A stretch of 64,000 nucleotides of DNA. Source: Chloroflexota bacterium (GTDB taxonomy: Bacteria > Chloroflexota > UBA11872 > VXOZ01). The stretch lies in NCBI GenBank assembly GCA_963663275.1, contig OY760183.1, forward strand, positions 2,048,001 through 2,112,000, in the 5' to 3' direction. Below are positions 1,644 to 45,263 of this stretch, in pieces. A program made the position numbers and the translations under genes. The notes below the pieces were generated by a model, which was not told the DNA's origin, ran no database searches, and saw nothing but the letters and a program-made list of their open reading frames with translations. How positions within the stretch are numbered: position 1 is the stretch's first letter; the number at the start of each line of letters is the position of its first letter.

Positions 1644-2492
1644 ATGGCACAAGACTTAGAGTTCATCAAGATGCACGGAACGGGCAACGACTTCGTGGTG
1701 GTGGATGCCCGGGCGAATGGTGAGCGGGCGTGGGCCGGCCTGGCGCCCAAGCTCTGCGACCGCAACTTCGGGATTGGCAGCGACGGCCTGCTGCTCATCG
1801 ACACGGACGCGGACCGGGGCTACCGGTTCCGCATGTTCAATCCCGACGGCAGCGAGGCCGAAATGTGCGGCAACGGCATCCGCTGCTTTGCCAAGTATCT
1901 CTACGACACCGGCGAAATCGGCGAAGGCTGGCTGGGCGTGGACACGCTGGCGGGGGCGCTCCAGGTGAACGTGCATCCGGGCGACAACGAGCGCTTTGCC
2001 GTCTCCGTGGACATGGGCCCGCCGTATCTGGCTCCGGCGGAAATCCCGGTGCTGGCCGATACCACGCCGGTCAAGGACATGCCGCTCAGCGTAAATGGCA
2101 CAGAGCTTGCGATAACGGCCGTTTCGATGGGCAATCCCCACGCGGTGACGTTTCTCGACGACATCGCGGCCTTTCCGCTTACTACCATCGGCCCGGAAGT
2201 AGAACATCATCCGGCGTTTCCGCAGCGCACCAACTTCGAGATTGCCCAGGTGGTGGCGCGCGACCGGATCGAGGTCAAGGTGTGGGAACGGGGTGCGGGG
2301 CCCACGCTGGCCTGCGGCACCGGCGCGTGCGCCACGGCGGTGGCCGCCCGCCTGCACGGCCTGACGGACGAGACCGTCACCATCGGTCTGCCCGGCGGCG
2401 ATTTGACCATCTCGTGGGACGGCGAGGGACACGTGTTCATGCGCGGCGCGGCGCAGACGGTCTTTGCCGGTACCTGGTTGCAGGGAGACTAG
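1644..2492 (+). CDS. dapF: Diaminopimelate epimerase
   Basis: KMHGTGNDF, NPDGSEAEMCGNGIRC, MGNPHAV, ERGAGPTLACGTGACA; start ATG 1644 after AAGGAG/GGAG. Confidence 0.97.
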   Translation: MAQDLEFIKMHGTGNDFVVVDARANGERAWAGLAPKLCDRNFGIGSDGLLLIDTDADRGYRFRMFNPDGSEAEMCGNGIRCFAKYLYDTGEIGEGWLGVDTLAGALQVNVHPGDNERFAVSVDMGPPYLAPAEIPVLADTTPVKDMPLSVNGTELAITAVSMGNPHAVTFLDDIAAFPLTTIGPEVEHHPAFPQRTNFEIAQVVARDRIEVKVWERGAGPTLACGTGACATAVAARLHGLTDETVTIGLPGGDLTISWDGEGHVFMRGAAQTVFAGTWLQGD

Positions 2493-2495
2493 TCC

Positions 2496-2831
2496 ATGTC
2501 CGACAGTACCAAGCGTCTCCTTGTCATAATTCTCGCTCTGCTGCTTGGCATCGTCTCCATCGCCCCGTTTGGCAGGATCAACCGCAGCGAACGCGCCGGT
2601 GTGCTTGCCGCGGTGGCTACCGCTCTTGTGGGCTTGATCGCTTTCATGCGGCGCGAAACGGAAGGCGAGCTCTTGGGCATTCCCTATAGCTTCAGCCCGC
2701 CGACGCTCGAGCGGCTGAAAGGGCGGCTGTGGAACGCCGACGACCCGCGCGTCTTCACCCCGCATATCTTCGGCTGGGGTTGGAGCGTGAACTTCTACCA
2801 GATTGGGAAGCGCCTCGGCCTGATTTCCTAA
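2496..2831 (+). CDS. Small membrane protein, DUF5808-like
   Basis: Two TM segments plus WNADDPRVFTPHIFGWGWSVNF, resembling the DUF5808 motif. Confidence 0.6.
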   Translation: MSDSTKRLLVIILALLLGIVSIAPFGRINRSERAGVLAAVATALVGLIAFMRRETEGELLGIPYSFSPPTLERLKGRLWNADDPRVFTPHIFGWGWSVNFYQIGKRLGLIS

Positions 2832-13210: not shown

Positions 13211-13341
13211 CCAGGATAGACGGAGGAGGTTCATGGCAGGCCAACGAGACCCGAGTAAGGTTACACAAAGATAAAGAGTCTTACACGTTCCTCGCCGTGT
13301 AGATTGTTTCCACTACAGAAAGAGTGACGTGAGAGTCAAAT

Positions 13342-14100
13342 CTAGCCCTGGGCAAATCCAAGATACTCGGCTAGTTCTTTGTGCTCGATGACTATGTTGG
13401 TGTCTGTTACCCGGTTCAATTCCCTGGCTCCCCCAGGAAGCAACTTCCCGCTCCGTTCCTTGAATACGACGTTAGCAACCAGTTTTCCATAATCCTTGAT
13501 AAGCTCGATTGCCGGAACATAGTCTTGATCTCCTGAAACAATCACTGCCACGTCGTAAATGTCCTTGAGGGAGGCCATGTCACAGGCTAGCTTGACGTCT
13601 ACCGACTTTTCTTCACCTAATCTGCCTTCAAACAGGTTGTACCGGACAACACCCGACCGCCGAAACTCTATCGCATCATGTTGAGCAGCAATGCCGTCTT
13701 GCACCTTAATCTGCCCGTCGAACCGGCGCTGCACATTCGCTTGCTGCTCCTTCAAGAGTTGCACCATTGCTTGCATCTTGCTGTTCAACTCTTCGCTCTC
13801 GGTGATTTGATCTAACTCTGCTCTATAGCTGGGATGCTTTGACAATACAGTCCGCAATCTGCTCGGGTCTCTCGCAAGCTTATTCAGACTGTACGGCCAG
13901 AAGGAAACGGCCCGAACCACATACCAGTACGTCCTAACGCGCAGGCCGCCGTAGCGGGGAGCACAGGCAAGTCGCTCAAAGAACTGGGTCCATGCAGCTT
14001 GCCTTGGCAAGTAGTTTATCTCTCGGAACTCACTCTTGAATAGCCTAACAATCGAGTGGCGAAAGTTCTCACCATCTACAAATACACAGACTCGGTTCAT
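13342..14100 (-). CDS. NYN domain (LabA/DUF88, PIN-like) putative ribonuclease
   Basis: VFVDGEN, EEKSVDVKLACDM and VIVSGDQDYVPAI carry the acidic catalytic motifs; visibly more AT-rich than neighbours; start ATG 14100 or GTG 14112. Confidence 0.88.
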   Translation of the reverse strand: MNRVCVFVDGENFRHSIVRLFKSEFREINYLPRQAAWTQFFERLACAPRYGGLRVRTYWYVVRAVSFWPYSLNKLARDPSRLRTVLSKHPSYRAELDQITESEELNSKMQAMVQLLKEQQANVQRRFDGQIKVQDGIAAQHDAIEFRRSGVVRYNLFEGRLGEEKSVDVKLACDMASLKDIYDVAVIVSGDQDYVPAIELIKDYGKLVANVVFKERSGKLLPGGARELNRVTDTNIVIEHKELAEYLGFAQG

Positions 14101-14111
14101 CGCATTCACCA

Positions 14112-14241
14112 CATAGAAAGAAGCGGCGAACCCGCAGTTCGCCGCTTACATAGGCAGCGAACGTGTAGGTTCGCCGCGAAACACGGCGAACCCGCAGTCC
14201 GCCGCAAATGATTCAGCCTAGGAACACCTAGACGCTTCTAC
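14112..14241 (-). ncRNA. Putative structured leader RNA / antitoxin-like hairpin repeat array upstream of the NYN gene
   Basis: Three hairpins of consensus GCGGCGAAC-loop-GUUCGCCGC (14121-14147, 14154-14177, 14183-14205) plus a small hairpin 14218-14231; all deviations are G.U pairs on the minus strand; last stem followed by UUCUUUCU. Confidence 0.5.
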
Positions 14242-14247
14242 GTCCAC

Positions 14248-14276
14248 ATGTTACTTGAAGCCGGCTCATGAGTCAA
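14248..14276 (-). promoter_or_regulatory. Sigma70-type promoter for the leader and NYN gene
   Basis: Minus strand TTGACT-17 nt-TAACAT. Confidence 0.65.
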
Positions 14277-15975: not shown

Positions 15976-16875
15976 GTGAATGTGGCTGAAATGAGGGAAC
16001 AGCACGTTTCCCGCGCCGCTCGGTTGGCGGAGACTATAGCCGACGACTTCTATAGCTCCAGGCTTGACTTGTCGGCGAGAGGCATTGAGACAATCGATCC
16101 TTGGTCGCAAATGCCGGAAGTGGCGAGCGCGAAGAGGCTGCGCGCTTCAGGAGCCTCGGATCGGCGGTTGCGGTTGTACCTCACGTTCAATACAGCGATG
16201 GATCGTGCCCGGGATTCGAACCGCCTCTGGCGGAACGCTTTCGCAATGTTCAAAGCGCGCCCAAGCCTCTATGAGCCTGATGTCGTTTCGGACGTACCGC
16301 TCGACACACTGCGAGAAGTCCTCACTCACTTTCACGTTAGCCAGCGCCACGGGCCTGATTCAGAGGCATGGAGAGACATCGCCCAGAGCCTGGCCTCCAA
16401 TGAAGGCCCAGTGTATCGGGTAATCGAGGAAGGTGTGGGCGACGCCGACGAATTGCTCCGAGATCTACGTAGCCGGAGTGGGGGGCGAAATCGCTTCCCA
16501 TCACTCAGAGGGCCAAAGATTCGCCCACTATGGGTGCGCACTATGGCGAGCCCCGGCGGGGCTGCCATCAGTGGAATTGATAGCATTCCGGTCGCGGTTG
16601 ACGTTCACACAAGGCGCGTGACTGAAAACCTTGGGGTGACGGATACGCGTGAATTCAGCATGGAGAAAGCGAAACCTATCATCCACGCGGCGTGGCATGA
16701 GGCGGTTGCGGCGGCGAATTTCGGCGGGCCGCCGGGCATAGAAGGCACGTGCGCCGCGCTGGACCCGGCGCTGTGGTTCTTTGGAAAGTACGGTTGCAGT
16801 TTCTGCGAGGAGAAGGGAGAACTGCTGCCCATCAGCCGGGCGTGTGACGGCTGTACGCTATTCGATCGCCGCTAA
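15976..16875 (+). CDS. HhH-GPD-like DNA glycosylase family protein with C-terminal Cys cluster
   Basis: FPSLRGPKI (HhH-like), PVAVDVHTRRV (catalytic Asp motif), LDPALWFFG, CSFC...CDGC. Confidence 0.6.
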   Translation: MNVAEMREQHVSRAARLAETIADDFYSSRLDLSARGIETIDPWSQMPEVASAKRLRASGASDRRLRLYLTFNTAMDRARDSNRLWRNAFAMFKARPSLYEPDVVSDVPLDTLREVLTHFHVSQRHGPDSEAWRDIAQSLASNEGPVYRVIEEGVGDADELLRDLRSRSGGRNRFPSLRGPKIRPLWVRTMASPGGAAISGIDSIPVAVDVHTRRVTENLGVTDTREFSMEKAKPIIHAAWHEAVAAANFGGPPGIEGTCAALDPALWFFGKYGCSFCEEKGELLPISRACDGCTLFDRR

Positions 16876-45101: not shown

Positions 45102-45263
45102 GGGCTTGTCCCCCGCCTCTTGGCGAGAAATGCTATGGTTTCCCTTAGCGTCGCACAAACGTAGCGCGGGGGCTTGTCCCCCGCCTCTTGGCGAGAAACG
45201 CTATGGTTTCCCGCAGCGTCGCACTAACGTAGCGCGGGGGCTAGTCCCCCGCCTCTTGGCGAG
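45102..45263. repeat. 68-bp-period tandem repeat of REP-A with a near-identical linker
   Basis: REP-A starts at 45161 and 45229; linker CTCTTGGCGAGAAAYGCTATGGTTTCCC..AGCGTCGCAC.AAC repeated. Confidence 0.8.

Follow-up and report, generated by a model that had tools for sequence, protein, structure and literature searches.

Bacterial NYN/LabA-like nucleases are numerous and almost uncharacterised, and a gene encoding one of them in a Chloroflexota bacterium raises the question of what a set of RNA hairpins is doing immediately upstream of a nuclease gene. The gene lies in a stretch of 64,000 nucleotides (nt) of contig OY760183.1 (positions 2,048,001 to 2,112,000 of the forward strand), referred to here as the window. 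The original prediction, made from the letters of the window, listed a promoter, an intact NYN gene, and between them a small hairpin and three GC hairpins of ~30 nt – all of which are present on the minus strand – and took them for a candidate type III toxin–antitoxin-like system. Here, we show by comparative sequence analysis that a dedicated, structured RNA, with its own predicted promoter and ending in a predicted terminator, precedes the NYN gene, and that it gives this subfamily of nucleases a candidate partner or substrate.

The following features make up the locus (coordinates are those of the minus strand of the window unless stated otherwise; R1 is a covariance model of the conserved RNA, described below):

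14248–14276, minus strand: sigma-70-like promoter, TTGACT (14276–14271), 17 nt, and TAACAT (14253–14248), with 9/12 matches in a promoter scan.
14216–14233, minus strand: hairpin 1, GUCUAGG-UGUU-CCUAGGC, with a 7-bp stem, 5′-proximal in the conserved RNA and aligning to hairpin 1 of R1.
14183–14205, minus strand: hairpin 2a, GCGGCGGAC-UGCGG-GUUCGCCGU, with two G.U pairs, the first terminator-type copy, from the sequence and an R1 match.
14154–14177, minus strand: hairpin 2b, GCGGCGAAC-CUACAC-GUUCGCUGC, with one G.U pair and a divergent loop, the second copy, from the sequence and a pattern search.
14113–14147, minus strand: hairpin 2c, AAGCGGCGAAC-UGCGG-GUUCGCCGCUU, a perfect stem (14147–14121) followed by the U-rich tract CUUUCUAU, from a terminator scan and an R1 match.
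14106–14110, minus strand: Shine-Dalgarno-like GGUGA, 5 nt 5′ of the ATG.
13342–14100, minus strand: gene for an NYN (PIN-like) nuclease of 252 amino acids (aa), in which residues ~67–140 form a helical insert (Pfam PF01936, E 2.4e-12).

The start codon is likely the ATG at 14100 (MNRVCVFVDGEN), rather than the GTG at 14112 given in the list of open reading frames (ORFs). Hairpin 1 follows the −10 box after a gap of 14 nt, and its loop has 4 nt where the UGCGU loop typical of the family has five. All three imperfect stem positions are G.U on the transcribed strand, as had been claimed, and the terminator claimed at the end of the leader is also borne out, in that the terminator scan flags hairpin 2c as terminator-like, with 12 pairs (seven of them G-C) followed by CUUUCU; together with this U-rich tract it is a putative weak intrinsic terminator. 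A leader peptide was rejected as an explanation, the leader having no usable ORF. For the leader, the predicted folding energy is −78.3 kcal/mol (z = −6.55), matched by 0/200 shuffled sequences, compared with −58.2 kcal/mol for the opposite strand. In the minimum-energy fold the arms of hairpin 2b have an alternative partner in those of hairpin 2a, and, the arms of the hairpin 2 copies all being alike, the copies could pair with one another in other ways.

Whether such a fold is maintained by selection was addressed with 48 leaders from other genomes, aligned with MAFFT with no fitting of structure and with the window left out. These share the consensus GCUUGGG-UGCGU-CCCAAGC, a linker of ~8–15 nt, and GCGGGAGGC-UGCGU-GCCUCCCGC-UUUUUUU, relative to which the final CUUUCU tract in the window is weaker. 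RNAalifold recovers two helices with compensatory changes in 13/16 pairs, and in 6/7 pairs of the hairpin 1 helix. Pairing is present in 95.8% of cells versus 85.5% in shuffled alignments, and the covariation score is 0.497 versus 0.280, neither value being reached in any of 500 shuffles; sliding the partners by 1–3 columns lowers pairing to 38–51% of cells. Wobble cells are strongly asymmetric – 87 G.U versus 8 A.C, of 767 – and the fold therefore points to a sense-strand RNA and not to a palindrome in the DNA. A UGCGU loop is present in 31/48 copies of hairpin 1 and 33/48 copies of hairpin 2. The linker is short and loosely conserved, with ATA in 23 of the 48. The conserved unit is thus one 5′ hairpin and one terminator hairpin with matching UGCGU loops. 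No hypervariable, guide-like segment was seen in the RNA, and the suggestion that it is guide-like is not upheld. The idea that the loops mimic tRNA anticodon loops was dropped as pure speculation.

The R1 model was built from these 48 leaders, again excluding the window, and it matches the window leader at 14237–14178 with 34.6 bits (E 4e-9) and a second time at 14162–14115 with 26.5 bits. Covariation, the G.U bias, and the match to an independently built model together agree with the earlier proposal that the RNA fold is selected, as a sense-strand structure dedicated to the NYN gene. The expectation that conserved, covarying hairpins would be found upstream of NYN homologues also held, but hairpin 2 is triplicated in the window alone, and R1 reported no second copy of it in the leaders of 160 other loci, so that the tandem repeats originally described are not the conserved feature of the family. 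The two-hairpin RNA is a widespread element without a matching family in Rfam 15. At gathering thresholds no Rfam 15 family was found at the leader in 20 loci; with E values up to 1, the window gave only Xoo2 (20.6 bits, E 0.36, gathering score 45), and locus L031 gave only the sub-threshold, terminator-like sroE (24.8 versus 51) and SraB (19.3 versus 130).

Within its own genome the leader is also distinct. The pattern GGCGAAC-N3-9-GTTCGCC occurs at three sites in 3.53 Mb, the other two of which are unrelated, and the only R1 matches with E < 0.05 across the whole genome are the two at the NYN locus, in agreement with the original assertion that the hairpins are not a repetitive extragenic palindrome (REP). 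A genomic repeat of the REP or bacterial interspersed mosaic element type, for which many dispersed copies would be expected, was accordingly rejected, there being no significant copy beyond the NYN locus in the 3.53-Mb genome. A weak R1 match at 45128–45189 of the window (plus strand; 11.9 bits, E 0.058) is probably due to chance.

Related loci were collected both from a scan of one genome per species, which gave 80 loci, and from a metagenome scan using a protein alignment, which gave a further set of 80; a metagenome scan with a single protein query found no relative. The two sets are not independent, as some metagenome loci duplicate genome loci. The position of the R1 element among them is as follows:

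On the strand of the gene, just upstream: 64/80 genome loci and 72/80 metagenome loci.
Upstream, on the opposite strand: 3/80 genome loci and 1/80 metagenome loci.
Weak R1 match: 0/80 genome loci and 1/80 metagenome loci.
No R1 match: 13/80 genome loci and 6/80 metagenome loci.

Nearly all of the 80 genome loci have the same leader directly 5′ of the start codon, and most R1-negative loci have a two-hairpin variant with other loops in which the second hairpin is terminator-like, including a Patescibacteria type (CCUCGG-AAUUGU-CCGAG) and another type in L040, L147, and L156. Judged by record titles, the genome loci span about 11 phylum-level groups: Chloroflexota, Planctomycetota, Patescibacteria groups, Nitrospirota, Desulfobacterota and ‘Deltaproteobacteria’, Acidobacteriota, Gammaproteobacteria, Omnitrophota, WOR-3, Binatia, and one Coriobacteriaceae bin. 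There is no conserved family among the neighbouring genes, the largest real cluster being represented at 5/80 loci (the second and third largest were discarded as antisense ORFs inside the NYN gene itself), and neither a protein antitoxin gene nor a conserved neighbour was found among the 80 loci. The NYN protein is thus a candidate reader of the loops, because it is the only protein that accompanies the RNA from phylum to phylum.

Linkage to the gene is equally tight among close relatives of the window. In 41 related genomes the R1 motif is present in eight, at a single locus in each and always at an NYN gene or its remnant. NYN is intact in G000 and G007, and is truncated or broken in G002 (locus L010), G005 (L009), G011 (L108), G020 (L004), G026 (L109), and G034 (L107); in these six of the eight motif genomes an intact leader (48.8–70 bits) stands ahead of a truncated or stop-riddled gene. 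A search of the genus with the window protein found a full-length copy in 1/16 other genomes (G007, 61% identity), and NYN fragments with stop codons in several others. All of these copies and fragments within the genus have a leader with a small hairpin, one GC hairpin, and then a U tract, and in two more distant genomes, G026 and G020, the sequence of the second hairpin is different and still self-complementary.

Several single loci have features of their own. In L035 an Acido-Lenti-1 RNA (Rfam, 51.7 bits; 2467–2520, minus strand) lies ~400 nt 5′ of the NYN module, and in L021 a tRNA gene (2727–2800, minus strand) lies ~110 nt 5′ of it. In L078 (2700–3010), from Candidatus Magnetobacterium casense, a ~270-bp insert with ~25-bp inverted repeats at its ends, resembling a miniature inverted-repeat transposable element (MITE), splits NYN after ~17 codons and leaves the RNA leader intact (64.6 bits). 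The R1 match there, counted among the 64, is ~270 nt upstream because the NYN gene is interrupted.

Signals flanking the RNA in related loci outline a predicted transcription unit. Matches of at least 9/12 to the sigma-70 promoter consensus occur within 50 nt 5′ of hairpin 1 in 34/64 loci, compared with 0/63 control segments taken 110–160 nt further upstream. The −10 box ends 7–21 nt before hairpin 1, and the RNA should therefore begin at or just before that hairpin; the R1 element is correspondingly placed as the predicted 5′ end of the NYN transcript in 136/160 loci. At the other end, the start codon lies 0–30 nt after the modelled U tract with a GGAGG- or GGGGG-type Shine-Dalgarno sequence in between, leaving no room for a separate NYN promoter. 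A GC-rich hairpin followed by a U tract thus lies between promoter and ORF, which is the arrangement of an intrinsic-terminator attenuator. This anatomy implies that terminated transcripts would give a small two-hairpin RNA of ~65 nt, and that the nuclease would be made only from transcripts that read through.

The leader in the window is a lineage-specific, diverged version of this element, with its 4-nt hairpin 1 loop, three copies of hairpin 2, and a weak U tract. Extra copies of hairpin 1 are present in two other loci, in tandem in L020 (2880–2935) and in L076 (2820–2935), where the second copy lies ~90 nt further upstream, before the promoter. Because hairpin 1 is doubled in these loci and hairpin 2 is tripled in the window, the hairpins appear to be duplicable modules. 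Two further features of the window bear on how the unit is set in its genome:

13211–14450, no strand assigned: low-GC insert of ~1.24 kb containing nothing but the promoter, RNA, and NYN gene, from the GC profile and the spacing of the flanking genes.
13281–13302, no strand assigned: terminator-like hairpin in the gap where the NYN and PD40/VWA genes converge, flagged on the plus strand and with a U-rich run after it on the minus strand.

The insert has a GC fraction of 0.48–0.55 (~50%), compared with ~0.65 in its flanks and 64% genome-wide. The PD40/VWA gene is separated from the aminotransferase gene by 1240 bp in the window versus 157–242 bp in four genomes of the same genus, and the promoter, RNA, and NYN gene are therefore considered to be a self-contained insert. 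The insertion site showed neither a target duplication nor terminal repeats; the spacer there cannot be aligned between species, and only outer limits can be given. The same spacer is 1.4–1.9 kb long in G001, G004, and G007, with inserts other than this NYN module. Elsewhere in the window, at 15976–16875 (plus strand), an ORF of 299 aa that has a Cys-rich C-terminal end and matches nothing in Pfam at E 0.01 lies in a stretch of somewhat lower GC (~0.60).

The protein itself is a clear member of the NYN family, scoring 48 bits against PF01936 (cut-off 24.2), and the acidic motifs noted earlier as intact are indeed so, with D9, D168, D191, and D193 invariant in 25 homologues. Proteins of the subfamily with this RNA are ~250 aa long; a homologue search gave 964 matches, and the closest 119 among the matches listed are ~50% identical (48–66%). 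An AlphaFold2 model (mean predicted local distance difference test score 91.2) has its best Foldseek match to 2qip (LabA-like, E 1.3e-5), followed by T5 flap endonuclease (FEN) and the NYN domain of MARF1. A profile search of PDB sequences gave nothing meaningful, NCBIfam has no family for the protein, and PADLOC gave partial matches, over the catalytic motif alone, to HEC-09 (2e-8) and NYN (1e-4). The PF01936 match, the invariant acidic residues, and the structural match to 2qip ally the protein with the LabA-like/COG1432 NYN proteins, from which the subfamily differs by an extra helical insert of ~75 residues (~67–140 in the model) that follows the second core strand and includes a 39-residue helix. 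Canonical NYN domains are described as lacking an insert at that position (PMC5499597); the COG1432 cluster is of unknown function according to the same paper, and the portion consulted mentions no RNA partner.

Whether the short RNA has a role beyond the transcript that it heads is informed by the 4/160 loci (L053, L054, L072, and L150) in which it lies on the opposite strand, 85–200 nt 5′ of NYN. These divergent RNAs keep their own U tracts, and their stems differ among loci by compensatory changes. The L072 copy directly adjoins the end of a convergent ORF, which we take from its translation to be dnaN-like, and leads no gene on that strand. Because a divergent RNA is outside the NYN mRNA and could have no cis action there, these loci are the main evidence that the short RNA is itself functional, and retention of structure in them suggests that it may work in trans.

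We favour a reading in which the RNA holds back the NYN nuclease both in cis, through attenuation, and in trans, through binding, and we give the two combined roughly even odds; in outline, the RNA would restrain the nuclease by attenuation and probably also by binding it. As envisaged, a sigma-70-type promoter would initiate transcription a few bases 5′ of hairpin 1, and ~65 nt further on hairpin 2 and its U tract would act as an intrinsic terminator, so that terminated transcripts would become the small two-hairpin RNA and read-through would supply the nuclease. NYN would contact the RNA at its two near-invariant UGCGU loops, for either binding or cutting, and the short RNA, if abundant, would restrain the nuclease in trans in the manner of a type III antitoxin, in addition to the attenuation in cis. 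In the window, the tripled hairpin 2 and the weak final U tract could add binding sites and alter read-through.

Several points weigh against this reading. A host factor or a small ligand, and not NYN, could read the loops. The divergent cases are just four of the 160 loci and may derive from one old inversion, or two, the NYN proteins of these loci being 54–69% identical to one another versus 46–57% with the others compared. The six broken genes with intact leaders are expected from the 11-fold difference in target size, and carry no weight. The family had no match on sequenced plasmids or phages (tblastn, E 1e-10), in collections that are biased to cultured hosts. Lastly, HEC-09, the candidate matched over the catalytic motif alone, is reported to have given no phage defence when tested (bioRxiv 10.1101/2024.01.29.577857).

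The strongest competitor is a purely autoregulatory leader acting in cis, in which NYN would adjust its own level by cutting or binding the leader of its mRNA and the short RNA would be a by-product. Self-regulation of nucleases through leader hairpins is an established theme, and both the position of the element at the 5′ end of the NYN transcript in 136/160 loci and the placement of the terminator 0–30 nt before the start codon are what such a leader would have. The four opposite-strand RNAs, however, keep their structure, U tract, and compensatory changes outside the NYN mRNA, and we consider the cis-only account somewhat unlikely. An attenuator controlled by a small ligand or by an RNA-binding protein of the host, as in riboswitch-like or antiterminator-like control, would also fit the terminator-embedded layout and the conserved loops, but a ligand pocket is not obvious in two simple hairpins whose loops are 5 nt long, and no alternative antiterminator pairing is evident, though no formal test for one was made. 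A host factor of this kind would also need to be universal, because the loci span about 11 phylum-level groups with NYN alone in common, and this account appears improbable.

It is likewise quite doubtful that NYN and the RNA form an RNA–protein enzyme acting on other targets, for example in defence, with the RNA as cofactor, scaffold, or processed product. Strict linkage of RNA and gene, even when the two are divergent, would be expected of such an RNA–protein enzyme, and the module is patchy in distribution, apparently horizontally transferred, and located on a low-GC island in the window; the short, loosely conserved linker and the lack of a variable guide-like segment speak against it. Finally, a feature acting at the DNA level – a REP- or MITE-type palindrome, a protein operator, or the terminator of the upstream gene – is very improbable in spite of the palindromic, tandem units of the window, since the hairpins are unique in the genome and directly downstream of a promoter, have nothing to terminate because the upstream gene is divergent, and show a G.U excess that disfavours double-stranded recognition, though a same-strand single-stranded DNA hairpin could tolerate G.T.

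The proposed restraint of the nuclease by its RNA, in cis and probably also by binding, can be compared with two kinds of known system. The mRNAs of Escherichia coli rne, rnc, and pnp have autoregulatory 5′ leaders, and the NYN leader resembles these in being a structured, hairpin-containing leader directly 5′ of an RNase gene and plausibly recognised by the enzyme. It differs from them in ending in a terminator, in having its own promoter at the 5′ edge, and in travelling with the gene across phyla, with a divergent orientation in four loci. If it acts only in cis, it would still be a new and widespread leader controlling a nuclease gene. The RNA is itself well supported – by strong covariation, by its presence in at least 136/160 loci, and by absence from Rfam 15 as a family of its own – and what is new here is an RNA family absent from Rfam 15 that is coupled to an uncharacterised nuclease subfamily. 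Searches of full-text literature, subscription journals excepted, turned up no RNA motif or RNA antitoxin tied to NYN genes, consistent with the earlier statement that no characterised NYN-based example was known.

The closer parallel is with type III toxin–antitoxin systems (ToxIN, CptIN, and TenpIN), in which one promoter drives a repeat RNA followed by an intrinsic terminator, and the RNase is made by read-through. The NYN module has the same order of promoter, RNA, intrinsic terminator, and nuclease, is a stand-alone module of patchy distribution, and in the window has an RNA with ~30-nt tandem repeats. The nuclease, however, has an NYN/PIN-like fold by Pfam and Foldseek and not that of ToxN/AbiQ, and the conserved RNA is a single two-hairpin unit and not a direct-repeat array. 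Because it departs from the type III family in both toxin fold and antitoxin architecture, the module is not assigned to it, and the type III-like description originally given stands for the layout and fails for the fold and the repeat array. We tentatively raise the possibility, while regarding it as rather doubtful in its entirety, that these loci constitute a new RNA–protein toxin–antitoxin or defence class in about 11 phylum-level groups, in which NYN would be neutralised by a ~65-nt two-hairpin pseudo-substrate RNA, transcribed from the promoter that also serves the gene and released by the terminator, with the UGCGU loops docking and hairpin copy number, tripled in the window, tuning the dose of antidote. 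Should restraint in trans prove true, the RNA-antitoxin logic of type III-like systems would extend to a PIN-like fold and to phyla that are for the most part uncultured, among them Chloroflexota, Planctomycetota, Patescibacteria, and Nitrospirota.

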